DNA from: Jatrophihabitantaceae bacterium
Lineage (GTDB): Bacteria > Actinomycetota > Actinomycetes > Mycobacteriales > Jatrophihabitantaceae
Assembly (NCBI GenBank): GCA_036506855.1
Contig: DASXRA010000210.1
Coordinates: forward strand, 1 to 28,279
DNA: 28,279 nucleotides
Reading direction: 5' to 3'
Shown here: in pieces, positions 3,986 to 27,796 of the stretch
Numbering within the stretch: the stretch's first letter is position 1
Layout: every line of letters begins with the position of its first letter
Program-made: the position numbers and the translations under genes
The notes under the pieces: model-generated
The model's input: only the letters and a program-made list of their open reading frames with translations
What the model was told of the DNA's origin: nothing
Database searches by the model: none

Positions 3986-4936
3986 CTACTGGCCGGAATA
4001 TGCCGCCAGCGCCGAGAGCGCCTCGTCGCGGATCGACTCCGCCAGCCACTCCGGCGACAGCACTTCGACGTGCCCGGCCGAGCCCAGCGCAAGCGCCCGC
4101 ACCCAGGCCGGATCGGCGACGCGCACGCTGATCCGGCGCCGCCCGTCGGGCTCGACCGTCTCGCTGTCGCTCAGGTAGTAGTCGGCGACCCACGCATAGG
4201 CCGGGTCGACGCGCAGCACGGCGAGCAGGTGTTCCGGTGCCGGCGTGAAGACGCCCTCGCTCAGGTCGCGCAGCTCGGCGTCCGGTGGCGGGTTCGCCGC
4301 CTCGTCCAGGACATCGGCCTTGTCGATGCGGTCGACGCGGAACACGCGCATGCCCTCGGCGCGGCGACACCATGCCTCGAGGTAGGCGCGCCCGTCCATC
4401 TCGAAGAGCCGCATCGGGTCGACGACGCGATCGGTGGTCTCGTCGCGGGTGGCGGTGTAGTACCGCAGCGCGAGAGCACGCCCCTTGTCGATCGCGCCCT
4501 GCAGCACCGGGATCAACGCGGACACGCGGTCGAGCTGCACCGCGACGGTCTCGGCGTCGACCGAGCCGCTCGCCGCGGACTCGACCTTCGCCAGTGCACG
4601 CTCGACGGCGTCGCGGTCAGTGACACCCGGCATCTCGGCGAGCGTGCGCAGGGCCACGACGAGCGGCAGCGCCTCCTCGGCGGTGAGCCTCAGCGGACGC
4701 GACATGCCGGCGTCGAAGATCACCGAGACCGAGTCGCCGTCGAAGGACAGGTCGATCAGGTCGCCCGGACTGTGACCGGGCAGCCCGCACATCCACAACA
4801 GCTGCAGGTCGCGACGCAGCTGATCTTCGGTGATTCCGAAGTCGGCCGCCGCCTGCTCGATCGCGACACCGTCGTGCGCCTGCAGGTAAGGGACGAGAGC
4901 GAGCAGGCGGGGCAGCCGCTCGCGTTCTCCGGTCAT
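3986..4936 (-). CDS. pafC: WYL-domain transcriptional regulator PafC
   Basis: MTGERERLPRLLALVPYL..., LWMCGLPGHSPGDLIDLSF, AYLEAWC, FRVDRI; ATGA overlap with the pafB stop. Confidence 0.93.
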   Translation of the reverse strand: MTGERERLPRLLALVPYLQAHDGVAIEQAAADFGITEDQLRRDLQLLWMCGLPGHSPGDLIDLSFDGDSVSVIFDAGMSRPLRLTAEEALPLVVALRTLAEMPGVTDRDAVERALAKVESAASGSVDAETVAVQLDRVSALIPVLQGAIDKGRALALRYYTATRDETTDRVVDPMRLFEMDGRAYLEAWCRRAEGMRVFRVDRIDKADVLDEAANPPPDAELRDLSEGVFTPAPEHLLAVLRVDPAYAWVADYYLSDSETVEPDGRRRISVRVADPAWVRALALGSAGHVEVLSPEWLAESIRDEALSALAAYSGQ

Positions 4937-5904
4937 GATGAGCCGGCAGCCGCGGGCACGACGCCGGCCACGGCTTGCAGGCGGGCGTGCACGGCGTCGG
5001 CCAGATCGGGCGGGTCGAGCACGCGTGCACCGGCCCCGGCGCTTGCCGCGGCCCGGGCGAGCCAGGTCAGGTCGTTGAACGGGACGGTCAGCACGCCGTC
5101 GGCCTCGCTCGTGGCGTACCGGCGCAGCTGACCGCCATGGCCGGTGACCTGGATATGCGCCACACGCGCTTCGTCGGGGGTTCGGCCGGCGACGTAACCG
5201 AGCAGGTCGACGTTCTCCGGACGCTCGAAGCCGCCGCTCTTCCGGTCGAGGGTGACCGCGCCCTGCACGCGCGAGAGGCGGAAGCTGCGCACGTCGTCGC
5301 GGTCGCGGTCGTACCCGACGACGTACCAGCGCCGCCGCCACGACAGCACGCCCCACGGCTCGACATTGCGCCGCTCGGGACTGCCCGACCCGGACTTGAG
5401 GTAGTCGAAGCGGACGGCCCGCGCGTGCCGTGCCGCCTCGAGGAACGTGGGCAGGGTCGGCTCGCTCGCATCGACGTGCGGCATGGTGGCGTTGCCGGAT
5501 GCCGACTCGACGTCGGTGCCGCCGGCCCGCAGCTTGATCAGGGCACTGCGCGCGGACGCGCCGAGCGTGGCGGACTGCCACAGCCGCGCGGCCAGGCCGA
5601 CCGCGGCGGCCTCCGCCGGGTCGAACTCGATCGCGGGCAGCTCGTACTTGCGGCGCGTGATGCGATACCCGTCCTCGGCGTCGAAGACGCTGTTTCGCCC
5701 GGTTTCGAGTGGAACGCCTAGGTCGCGCAGTTCAGCCTTGTCGCGCTCGAACATCCGCTTGAACGCCTCGTCGGTGCGCGGATCACCGTCCGCCGGTTCG
5801 TAGCCGGGCACCACGTCGCGGATGCGCTCGGCGGTCAGGAACTGGCGGGTGGACAGCAGGCAGATGACCAGGTTGACCAACCGTTCAGCCCGTCGCGCCG
5901 CCAT
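4933..5904 (-). CDS. pafB: WYL-domain transcriptional regulator PafB
   Basis: MAARRAERLVNLVICLL, FKRMFERDKAELRDLG, RWYVVG, RSFRLSR. Real start is ATG 5904; the 769-aa track ORF is an over-extension. Confidence 0.93.
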   Translation of the reverse strand: MAARRAERLVNLVICLLSTRQFLTAERIRDVVPGYEPADGDPRTDEAFKRMFERDKAELRDLGVPLETGRNSVFDAEDGYRITRRKYELPAIEFDPAEAAAVGLAARLWQSATLGASARSALIKLRAGGTDVESASGNATMPHVDASEPTLPTFLEAARHARAVRFDYLKSGSGSPERRNVEPWGVLSWRRRWYVVGYDRDRDDVRSFRLSRVQGAVTLDRKSGGFERPENVDLLGYVAGRTPDEARVAHIQVTGHGGQLRRYATSEADGVLTVPFNDLTWLARAAASAGAGARVLDPPDLADAVHARLQAVAGVVPAAAGSS

Positions 5905-6030: not shown

Positions 6031-7101
6031 GTGATCCGGTGGCGAAGCGGCACGGTGCTCGACGTGCGGCGCGAGTGGCCCGGCGTGCGCGAGGTGGGCG
6101 TTGACGTGCCCGCGGACGGGATGGTGCCCGCCCTGGCGTACGTGGCCCTCGTCGGCGCGCCCGAGCCGGGCGATCGGGTCGTGCTGAACACGACCGCGCT
6201 CGCGATGGGCCTCGGCACCGGCGGGCACGCGCTGGTCGTGGCGCTGCCGGACCGGCTGCCCCCCGACGCGCCGGGGCCAGGGCACATCGTCAAGGCGCGC
6301 TACACACCCGCCCAGGCGACCGTGCTCGGGGTGGACGAGCCCGCCTCCCCGCACCACGCGGAGATCACGGCCGCGACGTCGATCGACCGCATGCCCGTCG
6401 TCGTGGCCGACCTGCACTCCGCGCTCGGCGCGATCCTGGCCGGGATCCGTGCCGATGCGCCGGAGGCCCGGGTGGCCTACGTGCTGACCGACGGCGGCGC
6501 GCTGCCGCTGTGGTACTCCCATACCGTCGCGGCGCTGCGCCCGCTGCTCTGCGGCACGGTCACCACCGGGCAGTCCTTCGGCGGCGACCTGGAGGCCGTG
6601 ACGGTGCATACCGGGCTGCTCGCGGCGCGGCACGTCCTGCGGGCCGACATCGCCGTCGTGACGCAGGGGCCGGGCAATCTGGGCACCGGCACGCCGTGGG
6701 GCTTCTCCGGCGTGGCCGCCGGCGAGGTCGTGAACGCGGTGGCGGTGCTCGGCGGCCGGCCCGTTGGCGCGCTGCGGCTCTCTGACGCCGACCCCCGCGA
6801 ACGCCATCGCGGCGTGTCGCATCACGCGCTCACCGCGTTCGGCCGGGTGGCCATGGCCCCAGCCGATCTCGTGGTGCCGGCCGGCCTCGAACCGGCCCTG
6901 GCCCGGGCCGTCGCGGACGACCTCGCCCCACTCGGCGGCCGGCACCGCATCATCACCGTCCAGGTTGACGGGTTGGACGCGGCGCTGCGCAGCCTGCCGG
7001 TCGCCTTGTCGACGATGGGCCGCGGCTTGGACGAGGACTACGCCTACTTCGTGGCGGCCGCCGCCGCCGGCCGCCACGCTGCGATGCTCATGCCGGTTTG
7101 A
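6031..7101 (+). CDS. DUF3866 family protein
   Basis: MIRWRSGTV..., GHIVKARYTP, VADLHS, QGPGNLGTGTPWGFSG, RERHRGVSHH; conserved divergent neighbour of pafB. TAAGGT lies 6 nt before the GTG. Confidence 0.85.
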   Translation: MIRWRSGTVLDVRREWPGVREVGVDVPADGMVPALAYVALVGAPEPGDRVVLNTTALAMGLGTGGHALVVALPDRLPPDAPGPGHIVKARYTPAQATVLGVDEPASPHHAEITAATSIDRMPVVVADLHSALGAILAGIRADAPEARVAYVLTDGGALPLWYSHTVAALRPLLCGTVTTGQSFGGDLEAVTVHTGLLAARHVLRADIAVVTQGPGNLGTGTPWGFSGVAAGEVVNAVAVLGGRPVGALRLSDADPRERHRGVSHHALTAFGRVAMAPADLVVPAGLEPALARAVADDLAPLGGRHRIITVQVDGLDAALRSLPVALSTMGRGLDEDYAYFVAAAAAGRHAAMLMPV

Positions 7102-8431
7102 AGTCGACGTGCGTCGTGAGCCGCCGGTAGCCCAGCTGCTCGTAGAGCGGGGCCATGCTGTCGGCGCAATGCAGCCAGGCGAGCCCCGCCTGGCGCACGG
7201 CATATGACGTGGCCGCTGCAGACATGAGCCGGCCCAGGCCACGGCCTCGGCGCTCCGGCAGCACCGTGACCGCGGAGACGTAGGCGGTGCCGCCGGTCTG
7301 CGTCACGCGGGCACAGGCCACCGCGCGGCCCTGCTCGCGCAGAATCAGGAACGCCCGACCGGGCCGGCCGATCTGCCCGGTGAGGAGCGGGGCGAGGTCG
7401 TCGCCGAACACCGAGACGAACTCGGCGGCGTCGGCGGCATCGCCGATGTCGACGCCGTCCGGCGTGCGCAAATACGGCCGGCGATCGGTGATCCAGACGC
7501 CGAGCTCGAGTGCCGGGACGAGCCCCGCGCCTGCCAGGCCGCCGCGCTGCTCGTCCCGCACGCGCACCTGCCACGAACCGGGACGCCTCGCCGCCAACCA
7601 GTCGAGCACAGCGCCGAGCTCGTCCGGCGCGGGCAGGTCGGCACGTCCCGTCAGCGCCGCCTGCGTCGCCCACGGAGCGTCGATGTCGAAGCTTGCGCAC
7701 GGCACGCCGTGTATGTCGGCGGCGATCGCGGCGCCATCGGCAGATGCCTGCAGCCAGTGCTCCGCCGCCCGCCCGACGAGGTCGATGAGATCACCCGGAT
7801 GTGGGGCACGGTCCGGATCGCCGGGCCATCGCACGAGCGTCCACGCATGGCTGTCGACACTGAGCTCCGCGACACCGCAGTTCGGGATCGGATGCTCTCG
7901 CGCGAGGTGGTCGACGACATCGGACGCGCACCGCGGCAGAGCTAGACGCATCGCGCCGCCGTGGCTCACGACCACCACCGTCTCGCCGCGATGCGTGTCG
8001 GCGACCTCGTGCAGCGCCTGCCGCATCCGCGCGACCACCGCGTCGCCTGTCTCGCCACCGTCGATGCCGGCCGGCAGATCGCCGTCGAACCAGCGCAGGA
8101 ATGTCGTGTCGACCTGCGCCCAGTCCTCGTCGGCCTCGCTGCCTTCGTGCCGGCCCATGCTGACCTCGCGGACGCCGTCGAGCGTGCCGAGCCCGACACC
8201 GAACGCCGCCGCGAGCAGCTCACCGGTCTGCTGCGCGCGCAGTAGCGGCGAGGCGTACACGTGGGCGATCTTGTGTGCGCGCAACCGCTCGGCCACCGCG
8301 GCCACCTGGCCTCGTCCGCGCTCGGTCAGCGGTTCGCCCGGTGCCGCGGAGGTGAGCCGCCGCCCGAGGTTGCCCTCGCTCTCGCCGTGGCGCACCACCA
8401 GAATCGTTGCGGGGCACTGCAGGTCGGTCAC
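7088..8431 (-). CDS. Histidine phosphatase (phosphoglycerate mutase-like) fused to a C-terminal GNAT acetyltransferase
   Basis: N-terminal VRHGES, YASPLLRAQQT and VSHGG; C-terminal VTVLPERRGRGLG (acetyl-CoA motif A) and PLYEQLGY. One uninterrupted 447-codon frame. Confidence 0.85.
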   Translation of the reverse strand: MTDLQCPATILVVRHGESEGNLGRRLTSAAPGEPLTERGRGQVAAVAERLRAHKIAHVYASPLLRAQQTGELLAAAFGVGLGTLDGVREVSMGRHEGSEADEDWAQVDTTFLRWFDGDLPAGIDGGETGDAVVARMRQALHEVADTHRGETVVVVSHGGAMRLALPRCASDVVDHLAREHPIPNCGVAELSVDSHAWTLVRWPGDPDRAPHPGDLIDLVGRAAEHWLQASADGAAIAADIHGVPCASFDIDAPWATQAALTGRADLPAPDELGAVLDWLAARRPGSWQVRVRDEQRGGLAGAGLVPALELGVWITDRRPYLRTPDGVDIGDAADAAEFVSVFGDDLAPLLTGQIGRPGRAFLILREQGRAVACARVTQTGGTAYVSAVTVLPERRGRGLGRLMSAAATSYAVRQAGLAWLHCADSMAPLYEQLGYRRLTTHVDFKPA

Positions 8432-8437
8432 CGCATC

Positions 8438-8460
8438 ACAGTAAAGCGAGTCACCGACAA
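8438..8460 (-). promoter_or_regulatory. PafBC-dependent (RecA-NDp) promoter, leaderless-type
   Basis: Minus strand tTGTCGGtg-actcgctt-TACTGT-gatgcg-GTG(8431): exact TGTCGG-N10-TA-N3-T. Confidence 0.8.
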
Positions 8461-8473
8461 GGCGACATGCCGC

Positions 8474-8857
8474 CTATCCCTCGCCGATGTCGTCCGCACC
8501 CGGCGGTGTCGGCACGCCGCGCCACCGTGCCTCTGCCTGCTCGTCGAGCCCGGTGAGTTCGTTCGCGACCTCGGACGGAATGCTCGGCTCGTCGCTCGGC
8601 AGCTTCTCGATGCGGCCGATGTCGAGCCACCTGCGCATCAGCCCGGCGGCGCGCTCTTCGTCGATCTCGACCGTCTCGTCCCACGACCCTTGGTACTTCT
8701 GCTTGTAGAGGATGTCGCTGTGCACCCAGTCGCCGGATCGCAGCAACATCTCGGCGCGCGCGACGCGAGCGCCGACCGGAAGGCGGATCAACCCGGCCTT
8801 GCCGTCGTCGGCCAATTCCGGGGTGTCACCGGACAGGTAGTACTGCCATCGCGTCAT
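8474..8857 (-). CDS. Putative immunity protein (127 aa) for the upstream toxin
   Basis: ATG 8857 with GAGG upstream, 10 nt after the toxin stop: MTRWQYYLSG...GLIRL...AEMLLRSGDWVHSD...VEIDEERAAGLMRRW. Small, acidic and directly downstream of the toxin. Confidence 0.65.
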   Translation of the reverse strand: MTRWQYYLSGDTPELADDGKAGLIRLPVGARVARAEMLLRSGDWVHSDILYKQKYQGSWDETVEIDEERAAGLMRRWLDIGRIEKLPSDEPSIPSEVANELTGLDEQAEARWRGVPTPPGADDIGEG

Positions 8858-8867
8858 CGATATCGCC

Positions 8868-9638
8868 TCACCAGTTGATCCCTGTCGCACCAGTTGGTTT
8901 GGTGACCATCCCGAATATGCCGTTCTGCAGGTCTTCCAGGTAGTCACGGACGACCGGATGCAGGCCCGGAAGTCGCTGGAAGTCATAGATCCCGTGCGTG
9001 CCCTCCTTGGCTTCGAGGCTTTCGACCGAGTGGAACTGCACCTCCACCATCTGCCCGGTCTCGGTATCGCGCCACACGCTGTTGATGCCCTTGTAGCCGG
9101 CCTCGTTTCCCCACGTGTTCTTCAGCTTTCCGATCGGCTCGAAACCCGCGTCCTTGAGCTTGCCGATAGCGTCCTCGCTGACTCTGGCGTAGTCGTCCCG
9201 GGATGACTTGAACGTATAGCGCACCGCGTCCTTGATGCCGCTGAGCGACTCGTCTACGGTCTTTCCGTCGCGTACGACGTCGGTGGCGACCTTGCGCCGC
9301 AGCGAGTCGGCGGACTTGAGCTTGAACTCTTTCCCCGCCAGCTCAGTGCCCGGAATGGCCTGCTCGATTCGTTCGAGCCTCGGGGTGATCAGCTTCTCGG
9401 CCTCCCCCGACCGCTTGGCGAACGCGTCGATGGCCGCATGCTCTCCGTGGCTCAACTCGCCGACGAGGTCTTTCTCCATCTGGCCGAGAATCTCCTTGGC
9501 CGACCGGGTCTCGCCCCGCTTCAGCGCATCCTTGGTGACGGCGCTCTCCGCGTCGCGCAGAGCGCTGCGCGCGGCCTTGGCGATCAAGCCGCGGGCCGCC
9601 TCCTCGCCGCCGCGAACAGCGGCGCCGCCGCCTACCAC
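8868..9638 (-). CDS. Putative polymorphic toxin with RelA/SpoT-like (small alarmone synthetase) domain; start uncertain (GTG 9638, or ATG 9688 with a frameshift)
   Basis: KLKSADSLRRK (xKxxxSxxxK), DAVRYT, GYKGIN, EVQFHS and AKEGTHGIY correspond to the synthetase motifs in order; Gly/Ala-rich N-terminus. Confidence 0.75.
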   Translation of the reverse strand: MVGGGAAVRGGEEAARGLIAKAARSALRDAESAVTKDALKRGETRSAKEILGQMEKDLVGELSHGEHAAIDAFAKRSGEAEKLITPRLERIEQAIPGTELAGKEFKLKSADSLRRKVATDVVRDGKTVDESLSGIKDAVRYTFKSSRDDYARVSEDAIGKLKDAGFEPIGKLKNTWGNEAGYKGINSVWRDTETGQMVEVQFHSVESLEAKEGTHGIYDFQRLPGLHPVVRDYLEDLQNGIFGMVTKPTGATGINW

Positions 9639-9696
9639 GGCCGCCGCCGCGGCGCCGCGTCGGTGTTCGTGCCCAGCAAGCTCTCCATCCCTTCAC

Positions 9697-10188
9697 TCAG
9701 CTCAGGATCGCCATGATGACCTCGTTGATGATCGCGTTGATGATGCGCTCGGCGATCTCCTTGAACACCGGGATCTCGGCGAGCGACGCGCCGAACGTCG
9801 GCACCGCCGTCGCGATCGCTTCGGCGATCTCGCACGCGAGGATCACGAGGTTGACGATTGTGTTGATCTTGAGGCCGAGCACCAGGCCCGCGCACGCGAA
9901 CATCGCCGCGCCGACGGCCTCGACTCCGGTCGTCGCGTCGCCGAGCACTGAGGCAGGCGAGTTGTGGCTCTGGAGCTTGTCGTGGAACGCGTTCAGCGCG
10001 TCGGCTTGGTTGTTCGCCATGAGCTTCTGCGCAGCCGTCATCGTGAGTTGATGGGACTGGCCGACCGCCGAACCGAACTGGCACCAGGACTGGCCGACCG
10101 TGAACAGATCCTGCTCGTCGACCTCGGGCCAGGTGAAGCCCAGGTCGTTGAGCAGGCGTTCTAGTTCGCCGGGCAGTGTGACGCCCAT
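9697..10188 (-). CDS. WXG100-like helical carrier domain protein (163 aa)
   Basis: ATG 10188 with GGAGG: MGVTLPGELERLLNDLGFTWPEVDEQDL...AVPTFGASLA. Resembles the N-terminal domain of actinobacterial type VII toxins but ends in its own stop. Confidence 0.7.
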   Translation of the reverse strand: MGVTLPGELERLLNDLGFTWPEVDEQDLFTVGQSWCQFGSAVGQSHQLTMTAAQKLMANNQADALNAFHDKLQSHNSPASVLGDATTGVEAVGAAMFACAGLVLGLKINTIVNLVILACEIAEAIATAVPTFGASLAEIPVFKEIAERIINAIINEVIMAILS

Positions 10189-10204
10189 ACAGGTGCCCTC
10201 CCCG

Positions 10205-10510
10205 TCACTCTGCTTTGAACAGCGTCGCGCTGTTCTCCTCGGCGTCTTGGTAGTGCTTCGCCATCGTGTGCAGCCCGTCGGAGTAGGTACCCAGAGCCTG
10301 GTGCGACGTGCCGAAGCACGAGTCGGCGACCGCAATCGCGCCCATGAGCGTCATCTGGATGAGCGGCGCGACCATGTCGGTCTGGCCGAACTTGATGCCC
10401 ATCGTCTGCGCCTTGAGCTGTTCCCATTGCTGGTGCAGGTCGTCGCCGGCCTGTACGAGCGCGTCGCCCGTGGTGTGGAAGTCGTCAGGGTTGACGAGGA
10501 AGCCGACCAT
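10205..10510 (-). CDS. WXG100-like type VII secretion substrate (101 aa)
   Basis: About 100 aa, helical, with a C-terminal YxxxE signal (HYQDAEE) and no canonical WxG. Confidence 0.7.
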   Translation of the reverse strand: MVGFLVNPDDFHTTGDALVQAGDDLHQQWEQLKAQTMGIKFGQTDMVAPLIQMTLMGAIAVADSCFGTSHQALGTYSDGLHTMAKHYQDAEENSATLFKAE

Positions 10511-10512
10511 GC

Positions 10513-10860
10513 CTACTGCGCCCGCAGTCGGGTCACCGCAGCCGTGAGCTCGCCGCTCATGCGTTTCATCTGCTCGGCGGACTGTTCCTGGATCGCTGTG
10601 AGCTCCTCGATCAGGTTCGACGTCGACGAATCTGCCGGACGGGCGTCGACGGCCTGGTTCACGGCAGCCGCGATACCGTCCGCGAGCTCGGCGGCAGGCC
10701 TGCGCAGCATCGTCGGATCGACCGAGATGGACGCGACGTCGCCGTCCGGGCCGACGATCACGGTGATCAGTCCGTCGTCGGACGTGCCGGTCGTGGAGTC
10801 GCTGGTGCGGCGCCCCGATCCGGACAATACGGCGCTCGTCCGCATGAGTAGGTCGTCCAT
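10513..10860 (-). CDS. YbaB/EbfC-family (EspL-like) protein; start uncertain (10947/10884/10860/10845)
   Basis: GTSDDGLITVIVGPDGDVASISVDPTMLRRPAAELADGIAAAVNQA matches the family core. Confidence 0.7.
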   Translation of the reverse strand: MDDLLMRTSAVLSGSGRRTSDSTTGTSDDGLITVIVGPDGDVASISVDPTMLRRPAAELADGIAAAVNQAVDARPADSSTSNLIEELTAIQEQSAEQMKRMSGELTAAVTRLRAQ

Positions 10861-10894
10861 CTCCTGAACCGGGTCGGGCCGCACGTTCGTGACT

Positions 10895-11326
10895 CTAGCG
10901 GCGAGTCGATCCAATTTCGCCGGGCTGGCCGGCCGAATTTCCGGCACGCTCCTCGCGCGCTGCCTGCACGTGCTGCTCGACCTCGGCCATGGCCTGGACG
11001 ATCAACGTGAGCTCGGTCCGGGCCTGCTCGCGCATCGCCTTGAGCGCGTCGACCACCGGGGCGAAGTCGACCTTGCCGGGACGCGCGGCGAGTGCACCGT
11101 TGATGGCTGTCTGGATCTCCGCGGTCACGTCCGCGAGCGGGCGGCGCAGGACGCTCGGGTCGATCGACAGGGACCGCACCCGACCCTCGAGGCTGACCTC
11201 GGCTGTGATCAATCCGTCCGCGGCGGAACCCAGGTACGGGCCTGCGGCCGCCTGCGTTGAGTCGGGAAGCCTTCCAGCAAGTGCCGCCCGCGCCTGCGTC
11301 ACGAGAGCGTCGACCGACGAATCCAT
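10895..11326 (-). CDS. YbaB/EbfC-family (EspL-like) protein
   Basis: GSAADGLITAEVSLEGRVRSLSIDPSVLRRPLADVTAEIQTAINGA; paralogous to the next gene. TAAGGT lies 8 nt before the ATG. Confidence 0.72.
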   Translation of the reverse strand: MDSSVDALVTQARAALAGRLPDSTQAAAGPYLGSAADGLITAEVSLEGRVRSLSIDPSVLRRPLADVTAEIQTAINGALAARPGKVDFAPVVDALKAMREQARTELTLIVQAMAEVEQHVQAAREERAGNSAGQPGEIGSTRR

Positions 11327-11407
11327 GAACGCAGACCTTAGTGGGACGCGTTGGGTGAGTCCTGGTGACCAACTACGAAGCCGCAGCCGCGCCGACGCAA
11401 CGCGAAC

Positions 11408-11438: not shown

Positions 11439-12797
11439 CTACATGGAGTTGATCAGCTTCTCGACCCGGTCGTCGACGCTGCGGTACGGATCTTTGCAGA
11501 GCACGGTGCGCTGGGCCTGGTCGTTGAGCTTGAGGTGCACCCAGTCGACGGTGAAGTCGCGGCGACGTTCCTGGGCGCGGCGGATGAAGTCGCCGCGCAG
11601 CTTCGCCCGGGTCGTCTGCGGCGGCACGTTCTTCGCCTCGAACACGGTCAGGTCGTTCGTGATCCGGTCGACCGCGCCGCGTCGTTGCAACAGGTAGTAG
11701 AGGCCGCGTCCGCGCTGGATGTCGTGATAGGCGAGATCGAGCTGCGCCACCCGCGGCGACGACAGCGGCAGATCGTGCTTGGCCCGGTAGCGCTCGATGA
11801 GCGTGTACTTGGTGGCCCAGTCGATCTCGCGGTCGATCTTGCTCAGATCACCCTCCTCGACCGCGTCGAGCGTGCGCCCCCACAGTTCGAGCACGCGCTT
11901 GGAAGCGTCGTCCACGCCGGTGCGTTCGACGAAGTCCACGGCCTTGCCGTAGTACTCGCGCTGGATGTCGAGCGCCGAGGCGCTGCGCCCGGCCGCGAGG
12001 CGAACCTGCCGGGAGCCGGTCAGGTCGTGCGAGATCTCGCGGATCGCGCGGATCGGGTTCTCCAGCGCGAGGTCGCGGAACGTGACCCCGTGCTCGAGCA
12101 TGCGGAGCACCAAGTCGGCCGAGCCGACCTTGAGCATTGTGGTCGCCTCGTTCATGTTCGAGTCGCCGACGATGACGTGCAGGCGCCGGTAGCGCTCGGC
12201 GTCGGCGTGCGGCTCGTCGCGGGTGTTGATGATCGGACGCGACCGGGTGGTCGCCGACGAGACGCCCTCCCAGATGTGCTCGGCGCGCTGGCTCACGCAG
12301 TACACGGCGCCACGCGGCGTCTGCAGCACTTTGCCAGCGCCACAGATCATCTGCCGGGTGACCAGGAACGGGATCAGCACGTCGGCCATCCGGCTGAACT
12401 CGCCGTGCCGGCCGACCAGGTAGTTCTCGTGGCAGCCGTAGGAGTTGCCGGCCGAGTCGGTGTTGTTCTTGAACAGGTAGATGTCGCCGGCGATGCCCTC
12501 GTCGTGCAGGCGTTTCTCCGCATCGACGACAAGGCCCTCCAGGATCCGCTCCCCCGCCTTGTCGTGCGCCACCAGCGAGGTCAGCGAGTCGCATTCCGGC
12601 GTCGCGTACTCGGGATGGCTCCCGACGTCCAGGTACAGCCGCGCGCCGTTTCGCAGGAAGACGTTCGACGAGCGGCCCCACGACACGACACGGCGAAACA
12701 GGTAGCGCGCCACCTCGTCGGGCGACAGGCGCCGCTGGCCGTGAAACGTGCACGTGACGCCGTACTCGTTCTCGATACCGAAGATGCGCTTGTGCAC
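11439..12797 (-). CDS. pafA: Pup-protein ligase PafA
   Basis: [63 protein letters not shown] lies 6 nt before GTG 12797 (alternative GTG 12800). Confidence 0.97.
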
Positions 12798-12883
12798 CAC
12801 GACAGCCTATGCGCTGACGCGCGCGCGGCGCTGGCGAAGCGCCCGGCGTCCGGCGTAGCGGCCCGACAAGTGCGCGATGCCGA

Positions 12884-17249: not shown

Positions 17250-18548
17250 TCAGGCCGACCGGGGCACCGGTGCCGCCGCAACGCACACCACGTTGCGTCC
17301 GGCGTCCTTGGCGGCGTACAGGGCTCGATCGGCGGATCGGATGAGCGAGTCGAGTTCGGTGCCGTGCCCGGGATAGACCGCAACGCCGACCGAGGCGCTC
17401 AGCGGCACCTGGCGAGCGTCCGCGCCGCCGTCGACCACCCGGAGCGACTCGATCCGCCGGCGCACCCGCTCGGCGATCCCGGGCGCATCGTCGACGCCGA
17501 CCTCGGGCAGCAGCGCGACGAACTCCTCACCGCCGAAGCGTCCGACGGCGTCGTACCCGCGAAGCTCGTCGGCAAGGGCTTCCCCGACCGCGCGCAGGGC
17601 GTCGTCGCCGGCCAGATGACCGTGCGTGTCGTTGATCTGCTTGAAGTGATCCATGTCGATGAGCAGGATCGCGGCGCTCTGATCGCCACGCTCGGCCCTG
17701 GCGAGCTCGCGGCCGGCGAGCTGACGCCACGTCGTGGCATTGAGCAGATCGGTCTTCACGTCCATCGTCGCTGCCTCGACGAGCTCCTTGATCAGGTTCT
17801 GGTGCTGGAGCAGGAACACCGCGGGCAGCACCATGACCACGAACCACGGCGCGTACACGACGCATCCGGCGGTGACCGCGCCGAGCGCAAGCGTCGCCAG
17901 CTCCAGCGCGTGGTCAGACCACCGCCCGACGAGTGCGGCCCGCACCGGGGCACCCGTGCTGGCAATCACCGCGATCGCGACGATGCTGCGGTTGACGAGC
18001 CGGTACACGCAGACGCTGAGCACGATGAGGCCGGCTGTCGCGATCGGTGTGGACCAGAAGATGCCGGCCGGGTCGATGTGCCGCAGCATCGTCGAGACGG
18101 CGAAGCAGGTGAGCGCGACCCCAGCGGCGCTGTACACGACACGGTAGGGTCGCGCGCCATCGACACGACTCCACGAGCGGGCCCACAGGTGAGCGAAGCT
18201 TGCGACTACCGCAATCACGGCGAGACTCGGCGGAAGAATCAGGGCTCCGGCGAACAGCCAGACCGAGGTGACGTCGACATGCGCTGAGCCGGCGGCGATG
18301 AGCCGGCGCTGGAACTCGATTTGCCGAGATACCTCGATGTACGCGACGCTCAGCAAGACCAGCACGCTGAATCGGACAAGGTCTGCGTTCGTAACCGAGT
18401 CGGTGACAATCGCATATACCATAAGTGCTACTGCAACAGCATCAACCGACACGACAAGGGCGACGAGCCGGCGCGGCAGGCTCCAGAGTGCCCATCGTCT
18501 GGACACTGCCGATGCTCTCCGCTCCGTCGACACTTCGCTCTCGGTCAC
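17250..18548 (-). CDS. Multi-pass membrane diguanylate cyclase (GGDEF domain)
   Basis: About six to seven hydrophobic segments, then DVKTDLLN, LIDMDHFKQINDTHGHLAGD, an RGYD I-site and RFGGEEF. Confidence 0.92.
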   Translation of the reverse strand: MTESEVSTERRASAVSRRWALWSLPRRLVALVVSVDAVAVALMVYAIVTDSVTNADLVRFSVLVLLSVAYIEVSRQIEFQRRLIAAGSAHVDVTSVWLFAGALILPPSLAVIAVVASFAHLWARSWSRVDGARPYRVVYSAAGVALTCFAVSTMLRHIDPAGIFWSTPIATAGLIVLSVCVYRLVNRSIVAIAVIASTGAPVRAALVGRWSDHALELATLALGAVTAGCVVYAPWFVVMVLPAVFLLQHQNLIKELVEAATMDVKTDLLNATTWRQLAGRELARAERGDQSAAILLIDMDHFKQINDTHGHLAGDDALRAVGEALADELRGYDAVGRFGGEEFVALLPEVGVDDAPGIAERVRRRIESLRVVDGGADARQVPLSASVGVAVYPGHGTELDSLIRSADRALYAAKDAGRNVVCVAAAPVPRSA

Positions 18549-26870: not shown

Positions 26871-26892
26871 TGTCGGGGGGCCGTTCTACTGT
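26871..26892 (+). promoter_or_regulatory. PafBC-dependent (RecA-NDp) promoter, leaderless-type
   Basis: TGTCGG-ggggccgttc-TACTGT-tcggttc-ATG(26900): exact TGTCGG-N10-TA-N3-T. Confidence 0.8.
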
Positions 26893-26899
26893 TCGGTTC

Positions 26900-27796
26900 A
26901 TGAGCGACACGGTGGTGGCAACCGGCCCGGTGGCCGAGGCGGTGATCGGATCGTTGTCGCCCTCGCGCGCGTCGGACTTCAAGACGTGCCCGCTGCTCTA
27001 CCGCTTCCGCGCGATCGATCGTCTACCCGAAGCGCCGTCTCCGGCCGCCGCGCGTGGCACCGTCGTCCACGCCGTTCTCGAGCAGCTTTACGACCTGCCG
27101 TCCGGCGAGCGCACGCTATCCGCCGCGACAAACCTGGTCGAGCCGGCTTGGCAGCACCTGCTCGCCGAGGAACCCGCGCTCGGCACGCTGTTCGCCGACG
27201 ACGTCGAGGGCGCGGCGCTGTCTGGCTGGCTCGACTCCGCGCGCGACCTCGTCGCGAGCTACTTCGACCTGGAGGATCCGGCCGCGCTCGAACCCGCGGC
27301 CCGTGAGGAACTCGTCGAGGCGGTCGTCGACGGGCTGCGGCTGCGCGGATATGTCGACCGGCTCGACATCTCGCCCGCGGGCGACATGCGCGTCGTCGAC
27401 TACAAGACCGGCACGATCCCGCGCGAGGCGTTCGAAGCCAAGGCGCTGTTCCAGATGAAGTTCTACGCGCTCGTGCTGTGGCGTACCCGCGGCGTCGTGC
27501 CGCGGCAGCTGAAGCTGATCTACCTCGCCGACCGCGACACGTTGACCTACTCGCCGGAAGCCGACGAGCTCGTCCGGTTCGAACGCACGCTCAAGGCAAT
27601 CTGGACGGCCATCGCTCGCGCGACCGAGAAAGGCGACTTCCGGCCGAGCCCGAGCAGGCTGTGCGACTGGTGCGACCACCAGGCCCGGTGCCCGTCCTTC
27701 GGCGGTACTCCCCCACCGTTCCCGGCCGACGCGTTGGCAATCCTCAACCGCGACCGGCGCGAAGTCACGCCGCAGGTGGTCGAGCCAGAGCTGTAG
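26900..27796 (+). CDS. RecB-family PD-(D/E)XK exonuclease with Cas4-like four-Cys cluster
   Basis: LSPSRASDFKTCP, GTVVHAVLE, LRGYVDRLD, VVDYKTG, Q..FYA, CDWC.....C. Confidence 0.9.
   Translation: MSDTVVATGPVAEAVIGSLSPSRASDFKTCPLLYRFRAIDRLPEAPSPAAARGTVVHAVLEQLYDLPSGERTLSAATNLVEPAWQHLLAEEPALGTLFADDVEGAALSGWLDSARDLVASYFDLEDPAALEPAAREELVEAVVDGLRLRGYVDRLDISPAGDMRVVDYKTGTIPREAFEAKALFQMKFYALVLWRTRGVVPRQLKLIYLADRDTLTYSPEADELVRFERTLKAIWTAIARATEKGDFRPSPSRLCDWCDHQARCPSFGGTPPPFPADALAILNRDRREVTPQVVEPEL

Follow-up and report, generated by a model that had tools for sequence, protein, structure and literature searches.

PafBC controls the main DNA-damage response in mycobacteria and their relatives. Outside the mycobacteria, to our knowledge, its regulon is described almost only by predictions, and many of the members have no known function. 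The locus described here is a 28,279-nt stretch of DNA from a Jatrophihabitantaceae bacterium (contig DASXRA010000210.1; "the window" below always means this whole stretch), whose source is a 3.38-Mb metagenome-assembled genome with 70% GC and 80% completeness. On its minus strand lies a gene that joins a histidine phosphatase to a GNAT acetyltransferase and is preceded by a PafBC-type promoter motif. Judging from the sequence, we consider it probable (roughly 0.7) that this fusion gene belongs, as a lineage-specific member, to the LexA-independent DNA-damage regulon of PafBC, expressed from a leaderless promoter and encoding an enzyme that acts on small molecules; the promoter part of this reading, taken by itself, appears more secure than the whole.

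The published PafBC consensus, tGTCgg(N10)tA(N3)T, has its 5' part at positions -23 to -28 and is not accompanied by a -35 element (PMC8635444). Its GTC triplet, read by residues R46 and R50 of PafB, is kept strictly in the recA promoters of actinobacteria (PMC8635444). The directionality of the motif also matters (PMC8635444; PMC8151990).

A Probable PafBC-Type Promoter Upstream of the Fusion Gene

The fusion gene is an open reading frame (ORF) of 447 amino acids (7088..8431, minus strand) that opens with a GTG codon at 8429..8431. Reading the minus strand from 8460 downward, the sequence is TTGTCGG-TGACTCGCTT-TACTGT-GATGCG-GTG, where TGACTCGCTT is the N10 spacer. Both the -26 element tTGTCGG (8454..8460, minus strand, with TGTCGG at 8459..8454) and the -10 hexamer TACTGT, of the form TANNNT (8438..8443, minus strand), are supported by pattern match and by conservation in orthologues. 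The motif points toward the gene and leaves a gap of 6 nt between TACTGT and the GTG at 8431. Were the G of this codon the transcription start, TACTGT would fall at -12 to -7 and TGTCGG at -28 to -23, an exact match to the published PafBC geometry. No sigma-70 -35/-10 pair was found between 6900 and 8700, and the 6-nt gap before the GTG contains no Shine-Dalgarno sequence. In orthologues, protein conservation (V-T/S-D-L-Q-C-P) begins exactly at the GTG codon. Two matches to TGTCGG-N10-TANNNT occur in the window, against 0.02 expected from shuffled sequences.

The cognate regulator is encoded nearby. The product of pafB (4933..5904, minus strand; WYL/WCX) aligns to the M. smegmatis PafB of the RNA polymerase-PafBC structure 7P5X (E 6e-68), and in this alignment it retains R-M-F-E-R, including the equivalents of R46 and R50. 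Next to it, pafC (3986..4936, minus strand) was recognized by matches to the HTH_PafC, WYL and WCX domains.

A preliminary description of this DNA, made from its letters alone, had placed the motif 6 nt before the GTG, intact in a 42-nt gap beside a toxin cassette and 1.2 kb from pafB. The exact sequence is indeed present on the minus strand (8460..8438, with the GTG at 8431); the upstream ORF stops at 8474, which leaves a gap at 8432-8473, and 1,184 nt separate the start of pafB (5904) from the stop codon at the 3' end of the fusion gene. The same description had equated TGTCGG-N10-TA-N3-T with the PafBC promoter, in agreement with the published consensus (PMC8635444), and had read the 447-amino-acid ORF as an RHG phosphatase joined to a GNAT domain, both of which were recovered by Pfam.

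The Motif Across the Source Genome

Genome-wide, TGTCRG-N10-TANNNT was found 21 times, compared with 0-7 times (mean about 4) in third-order Markov simulations, an approximately five-fold enrichment. This number was specific to the N10 spacer, as every other spacer from 5 to 16 gave only 0-6 matches. In 15 of the 21 cases, the -10 hexamer is followed after 5-10 nt by the start of an ORF of at least 100 amino acids, which implies leaderless transcripts, and it is this shared spacing that leads us to predict a transcription start at the GTG of the fusion gene.

The genes that follow the motif include several with roles in repair, namely recA, uvrB, polA, radA, an AlkZ-like glycosylase, an HhH-GPD glycosylase and a PD-(D/E)XK nuclease. 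Others encode a DinB_2/MDMPI protein, a stand-alone GNAT of 169 amino acids (contig C15), two DrrA-like ABC ATPases, a SAM methyltransferase, an alpha/beta hydrolase, an ECF sigma factor and an AraC regulator. As predicted from its sites, this set looks like the mycobacterial PafBC regulon.

Two further observations concern individual members. Within the window, a gene for a PD-(D/E)XK nuclease of the RecB family (298 amino acids; 26900-27796, plus strand) has a second exact motif (TGTCGG-N10-TACTGT; 26871-26892, plus strand) 7 nt ahead of its ATG. Elsewhere, the predicted members of xenobiotic type (the DrrA-like ATPases, the AlkZ-like crosslink glycosylase, the DinB_2/MDMPI protein, the SAM methyltransferase, the alpha/beta hydrolase and the 169-amino-acid GNAT) lie on contigs C15, C58, C93, C218, C273, C298 and C381 of genome G000 (loci L001, L003, L004, L006, L010, L011 and L015), and most of them appear to be leaderless.

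Conservation of the Promoter in Orthologues

Orthologous loci were gathered from encoding contigs, from a coding-sequence pattern scan of metagenomes and from genome searches. The exact motif, 6-7 nt before a GTG, is found in the window, in L100 (87% identity) and in L119, L130, L160, L165 and L143 (88-95%), as well as in the more distant L167 (69%), L103/L171 and L155 (65%) and L175 (63%). In L157 and L163 (58%) the corresponding sequence is cGTCGC-N10-TACCGT; a C-for-T variant of this kind was accepted for Rv0133 in the M. tuberculosis list (PMC8151990).

When ten non-redundant upstream regions were anchored on the -10 hexamer, the consensus obtained was '.......ttGTCG......c....TAccgT'. Across these ten orthologues (58-93% identity), only ttGTCG and TAnnnT are conserved, and the spacer and flanks have diverged (dS about 0.7-0.8). 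All orthologues with a promoter of their own have the -10 hexamer at a distance of 6-7 nt from the GTG. A TANNNT hexamer at this distance, with no -26 element, also precedes many unfused histidine phosphatases whose N-terminus is the same.

Reality, Spread and Selection of the Fusion

Among 5.8 billion proteins searched, about 60 clusters shared the two-domain architecture, with identities of 44-99%. They include proteins of cultured Angustibacter species, for which NCBI already uses the name [quoted passage not shown]. Clustering at 50% reduced the fused family to about three representatives. A partial protein labelled Jatrophihabitantaceae is 88% identical. Each half also has many stand-alone relatives: proteins of about 205 amino acids match residues 1-205 with 40-50% identity, and proteins of about 240 amino acids match residues 213-446 with 39-55% identity. 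No relevant literature on a histidine-phosphatase/GNAT fusion was located.

Against three orthologues, dN/dS of the fusion is 0.21-0.34 in each of its three parts, compared with 0.01-0.15 for pafA, pafC and the DUF3866 gene, and its dS matches that of these neighbours. The gene is therefore functional, evolves faster than its neighbours and has been inherited vertically with the locus. The preliminary description had allowed that the fusion might be an artefact of a lost stop codon in this single assembly; this possibility was rejected because about 60 clusters share the architecture and the fusion gene is under purifying selection, and the fusion is thus genuine.

A few copies of the fusion gene from metagenomic or nanopore data, in L143, L165 and L020/L174, look frameshifted or split. 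The DUF3866 gene and pafC next to it are broken up as well in L020/L174, a sign of errors in long-read assembly. The frameshifts in L143 and L165 may reflect either assembly error or decay.

Domains and Structure of the Fusion Protein

The N-terminal half is a histidine phosphatase domain (amino acids 1-204; 7820..8431, minus strand; Pfam PF00300, E 2e-45), with His_Phos_1 covering residues 10-202 at 155 bits against a cut-off of 21.7. Its catalytic residues are RHG 14-16, R65, E89 and H157. Over 58 homologues, R14, H15, R65 and H157 are invariant, and G16 and E89 are present in at least 90%. By its residues, it is apparently an active histidine phosphatase of branch 1.

In the C-terminal half, the catalytic GNAT lobe (amino acids 336-447; 7091..7426, minus strand) is matched at residues 340-440 by PF00583 (40.1 bits against a cut-off of 20.7) and PF13508 (41.3 against 27), with E values from 2e-10 to 5e-10. 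It carries the acetyl-CoA motif R395-G396-x-x-x-G400 as well as Y430. R395 and G400 are invariant and Y430 invariant or nearly so in 58 sequences, and G396 is nearly invariant in an alignment of 19. The preceding segment, residues 213-335 (7427..7795, minus strand), has no Pfam match and was recognized from AlphaFold2 (AF2) modelling and Foldseek as the N-terminal lobe of a tandem GNAT. The full-length AF2 model (pLDDT 88.8) shows the phosphatase at residues 8-201, a low-confidence or disordered linker at 205-212 and a compact C-terminal unit, which when modelled alone reached pLDDT 93.1 and pTM 0.89. On these models, the C-terminal half is a tandem GNAT in which the C-terminal lobe keeps the acetyl-CoA motif.

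Structural comparison placed the phosphatase near PhoE/YhfR, the phosphoserine phosphatase PspA, Rv2419c GpgP and CobC (TMt about 0.8). The neighbours of the C-terminal unit in Foldseek are 4IUS (TMq 0.73, with a sequence match at E 1e-11), VipF, MshD, MAB_4324, a clavulanate tandem GNAT, glucosamine N-acetyltransferase and glycine N-acyltransferase. Two more specific identities were considered. A tandem GNAT of the bleomycin N-acetyltransferase type is unsupported, as no such protein is among the best 50 Foldseek matches or the 49 PDB profile matches (E <= 1). A Rosetta-stone reading, in which the protein would unite MshD with the missing mycothiol phosphatase "MshA2", was discarded on the grounds that there is no MshD equivalog, that the GNAT is shorter and that the gene is missing from genomes of the same genus.

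Locus Organization and Gene Neighbourhood in Relatives

The window as a whole is a Pup-proteasome locus. On the minus strand, the order is mpa, dop, a GGDEF gene, prcB, prcA, an ECF sigma module and pafA, the Pup ligase gene (11439..12800, minus strand; Pfam PF03136, E 6e-168). After pafA come a 2.87-kb insert and the fusion gene, followed by a DUF3866 gene on the plus strand (6031..7101; Pfam PF12982, E 3e-121), which is convergent with the fusion gene (14-nt overlap) and divergent from pafB. Beyond it lie pafB, pafC, tatC, a DAG-kinase-like gene and a helY-like helicase gene. The GGDEF diguanylate cyclase gene (17250-18548, minus strand) sits inside the proteasome cluster, between dop and prcB. 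No Rfam family was found in the window.

Among 142 genomes of the same family, 25 contain DUF3866 and 9 contain the fusion, which is present in 6 of the 13 genomes of the window's genus (counting G000) and in 3 of the 4 of a second genus. The order in the family is always pafA > fusion >< DUF3866 - pafB > pafC, so that DUF3866 adjoins the fusion in all nine fusion-bearing genomes; 16 more have DUF3866 without it. A plain pafA-pafB-pafC arrangement or pafA >< DUF3866 - pafB is seen in other relatives, among them two from the same genus. A sample of 400 further genomes from across the order contained no copy of the fusion. In the metagenomic locus L182, the same slot, 21 nt after pafA, is occupied by an unfused tandem GNAT of 246 amino acids that is 51% identical to residues 214-446. 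In Angustibacter, L136, L157 and L164, the fused gene lies elsewhere, with no paf genes nearby. In Angustibacter aerolatus (L115:6358-7887), a photolyase-related DPRP gene directly follows the fused gene, and in L114 and L115 nucS is found about 3-4 kb from it (at about 9.5-10.7 kb). This proximity may be fortuitous, or it may be a further hint that the gene is connected with DNA damage.

The DUF3866 gene is divergent and beside pafB in 25 of the 142 family genomes, whether or not the fusion is present (loci including L176-L181). The intergenic region between them contains a short palindrome-like block, GATCAGCAATGATC, that is kept across genera; a pattern scan of this divergent region found no PafBC motif. 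No relevant literature on DUF3866 function was located.

The insert between pafA and the fusion promoter (8473..11347, minus strand) was delimited by blastn against L100 and is lineage-specific. Its genes encode YbaB/EbfC-like proteins, a WXG100-like protein (9697-10335), a 256-amino-acid protein (8868-9638) that matches effectors of the XopAD/skwp type over their C-terminal 190 residues (NF041399, E 4e-23) and a 170-amino-acid ORF product (8474-8986). It is missing in the 87%-identical L100 and present in the near-identical metagenomic contigs L119, L130, L143 and L160. Its end lies 13 nt upstream of the -26 element, and the promoter is intact. In L100, the pafA-fusion intergenic region (L100:5706-5960) is made up of about 2.5 tandem copies of a repeat of roughly 110 nt, at the place where the window has the toxin cassette.

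Proposed Mechanism and Alternative Explanations

From the N10-specific regulon, the promoter geometry, the adjacent pafBC with the PafB arginines, the conservation in orthologues and the genuineness of the fusion, we infer PafBC dependence, a transcription start at the GTG and induction by DNA damage. Upon damage, PafBC, encoded 1.2 kb away and activated by single-stranded DNA, would bind the -26 element tTGTCGG (8460-8454) and adapt RNA polymerase-SigA to a promoter that has only a -10 hexamer (TACTGT, 8443-8438) and no -35 element. Transcription would then start at or next to the G of the GTG at 8431 and yield a leaderless mRNA. Given the lack of a Shine-Dalgarno sequence, transcripts reading through from the cassette would be poorly translated, and expression would thus be gated by the fusion promoter itself. 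The tandem GNAT would most likely N-acetylate a small-molecule amine. A phosphorylated metabolite or xenobiotic, either the same compound or a related one, would be the target of the phosphatase, and the gene would accordingly belong to an arm of the regulon that handles genotoxins or metabolites, not to direct DNA repair. A small-molecule role is the best guess because the characterized enzymes of this fold class mostly acetylate small-molecule amines, because the distribution is that of an accessory gene and because the regulon has genes of xenobiotic type; this role could be genotoxin inactivation or the handling of a damage-derived metabolite.

Several observations weigh against this reading. 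Two species (L101/L168 and L102/L169; 67-68% identity) have a TGTCGC variant, and in L136 and L164 the motif spacing is off by one. The motif is missing from G419 (L170), which belongs to the same genus, from all three genomes of the 52%-identity genus g100 (L018, L020, L172-L174), from the unfused, GNAT-only L182 and from Angustibacter (L019, L114-L117), which retains only the leaderless -10. In the 52%-identity genus, AAGGAG precedes the start and the gene lies 52 nt after pafA. The position beside pafBC may only reflect a site that tolerates insertions, the same junction having also taken the toxin cassette. As for the enzyme, no NCBIfam equivalog cut-off was reached, all matches being far below, there is no characterized close homologue, and the best structural neighbour, 4IUS, is itself uncharacterized. 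The motif is thus kept in one clade of the fused form (at least 58% identity) and is not family-wide; one fused clade has it, and the unfused forms examined do not. The regulatory claim of the preliminary description, that the gene is driven by a damage promoter, is strongly supported by computation on the regulon, the geometry, PafB and conservation, with the qualification that the motif is clade-specific. Of the functions proposed there, detoxification fits the tandem-GNAT fold, as a guess, and nothing specific was found for the clean-up of DNA ends or nucleotides.

The regulatory part of the argument would fail if the promoter were a constitutive, leaderless SigA promoter and TGTCGG were fortuitous or bound by another factor, so that the gene would not be damage-induced. 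The many stand-alone histidine phosphatases with the same N-terminus, which have TANNNT and no -26 element, and the several orthologues that lack this element are consistent with such a promoter. We nevertheless consider it quite improbable, since the -26 element has been held at a fixed spacing over a dS of about 0.7-0.8 while its surroundings diverged, since it outlasted a 2.87-kb cassette insertion that ended 13 nt upstream, and since the genome-wide N10 specificity and the nature of the genes preceded by the motif argue for function. Other alternatives accept the promoter and assign the enzyme a different substrate. The phosphatase could clean up nucleic-acid ends or damaged nucleotides (3'-phosphate, 2',3'-cyclic phosphate, oxidized dNDPs), which takes up the clean-up idea of the preliminary description. 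In its favour are a regulon dominated by DNA-repair genes, the best NCBIfam similarity of the phosphatase half, which points to the acid-phosphatase portion of the bifunctional RNase H/acid phosphatase (NF005567, E 9e-25), and a weak match to the histidine-phosphatase domain of the mycobacterial 8-oxo-(d)GTP phosphatase MutT1 (NF052459; PDB 9cxx, 5gg5). Both scores, however, are far under the curated cut-offs (87.8 vs 326 bits and 24.9 vs 475 bits), the protein has no nucleic-acid-binding domain, the closer structural matches are metabolite phosphatases, and an N-acetyltransferase would have no obvious role at DNA ends; we regard this function as very unlikely.

Action on proteins is also unlikely, though less so than nucleic-acid clean-up. 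Under the same promoter, lysines or N-termini would be acetylated by the GNAT, and the histidine phosphatase would dephosphorylate proteins, as SixA, PGAM5 and Sts do. The pair would tune the Pup-proteasome or the DNA-repair machinery during damage, for instance through the acetylation of lysines that are otherwise targets of pupylation. Within the family, the slot of the GNAT unit is constant: whether fused or unfused, it comes immediately behind pafA and ahead of DUF3866-pafBC, and three forms are probably co-transcribed with pafA (gaps of 21-52 nt, with a Shine-Dalgarno sequence in the forms with a 52-nt gap). The structural neighbours include VipF, a tandem GNAT whose target is a host translation factor, and there are weak matches to SixA and Sts-2. 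However, the dS of the paf-linked copies matches that of their neighbours, so that they derive from one insertion and their synteny counts as a single evolutionary event, and the fused orthologues of Angustibacter, L136, L157 and L164 lie away from paf genes. Moreover, most tandem-GNAT neighbours use small molecules (MshD, glucosamine N-acetyltransferase, GLYAT, the clavulanate CBG protein), and the phosphatase is nearest to small-molecule enzymes (PhoE, PspA, CobC, GpgP). The tandem-GNAT unit, with or without the phosphatase, has also been considered as a dedicated accessory of the Pup-proteasome/PafBC damage system, which we think quite improbable. Placed at the pafA/pafBC junction, such a unit may be expressed with pafA or from its own PafBC promoter, and may modify a component or a substrate of this system, for instance by acetylating lysines and so blocking the pupylation of repair proteins while damage lasts, or by processing a damage-derived metabolite. 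If true, it would represent a previously unrecognized enzymatic layer of the LexA-independent response.

Comparison with Known Systems

Placing the fusion gene in the PafBC regulon with a small-molecule enzyme as its product, the reading we prefer, adds a comparatively validated regulon prediction for an uncultured actinobacterium from soil, in which recA, uvrB, polA and radA serve as internal controls, and an unusual member of that regulon, a histidine phosphatase with a tandem GNAT embedded between pafA and pafBC. At present, this is a solid advance at the level of annotation and not a new principle. The orthologues also offer a natural series for study, in which the gene is coupled to pafA, has its own leaderless PafBC promoter, is unfused or lies elsewhere in the genome. 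If found, the substrate of the enzyme could bring to light a branch of the damage response that is chemical and not concerned with repair, for instance the inactivation of a genotoxin or the handling of a damage-derived metabolite.

The fusion architecture is unusual; it is already named in databases and is uncharacterized. Its phosphatase shares the RHG...R...E...H residues and the fold with PhoE/YhfR (1EBB), PspA (4IJ5), CobC and Rv2419c GpgP (TMt 0.78-0.84; E about 1e-15). Unlike those broad-specificity phosphatases, with which identity is only 24-28%, it reaches no equivalog cut-off and is fused to a tandem GNAT. Precedents for a phosphatase fused to a second enzyme are the RNase H/acid phosphatase of the Rv2228c type and MutT1 (Nudix plus histidine phosphatase), and the RNase H/acid-phosphatase proteins are the nearest outgroup matches. 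The partner in the present case is a GNAT, instead of RNase H or Nudix, and the similarity is limited to the phosphatase fold: NF005567 matched the phosphatase half only, at 87.8 bits against a cut-off of 326, and Pfam gave no RNase H match.

The tandem GNAT has the fold of 4IUS (Kribbella flavida) and MshD (2C27/1OZP), with a degenerate N-terminal lobe and an active C-terminal lobe. Its likeness to the mycothiol synthase MshD is one of fold only (TMq 0.61, TMt 0.50, 18% identity), and no MshD model is among the 19 NCBIfam matches at E <= 0.01. The unit is shorter than MshD (235 against about 300 amino acids), is fused to a phosphatase and has a patchy, accessory distribution, unlike a core thiol-biosynthesis gene such as mshD.

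The promoter has its counterparts in mycobacteria. With the mycobacterial PafBC promoters (RecA-NDp, or recA P1, with sigma adaptation), it shares the bipartite tGTCgg-N10-tAnnnT without a -35 element, the geometry (if transcription starts at the GTG), a cognate pafBC, the DNA-reading arginines of PafB and the presence of the motif before recA and other repair genes of the same genome. It differs in that its host is an uncultured, non-mycobacterial actinobacterium. No report of a PafBC target gene with a phosphatase-GNAT architecture was located in the literature. A related case is Rv0133, a GNAT of M. tuberculosis that is listed among the PafBC candidates induced by mitomycin, that has CGTCGG-N10-TAGCCT in front of it (PMC8151990, supplement file 6), and whose gene coordinates span 606 nt, or about 200 amino acids (PMC8151990, supplement). 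Rv0133 and the fusion can be likened by domain class and motif, both being GNAT proteins with a PafBC-type motif. Presumably a single-domain GNAT, Rv0133 is without the phosphatase, unlike the fusion. By this analogy, it would provide a mycobacterial precedent for a GNAT in the PafBC regulon.

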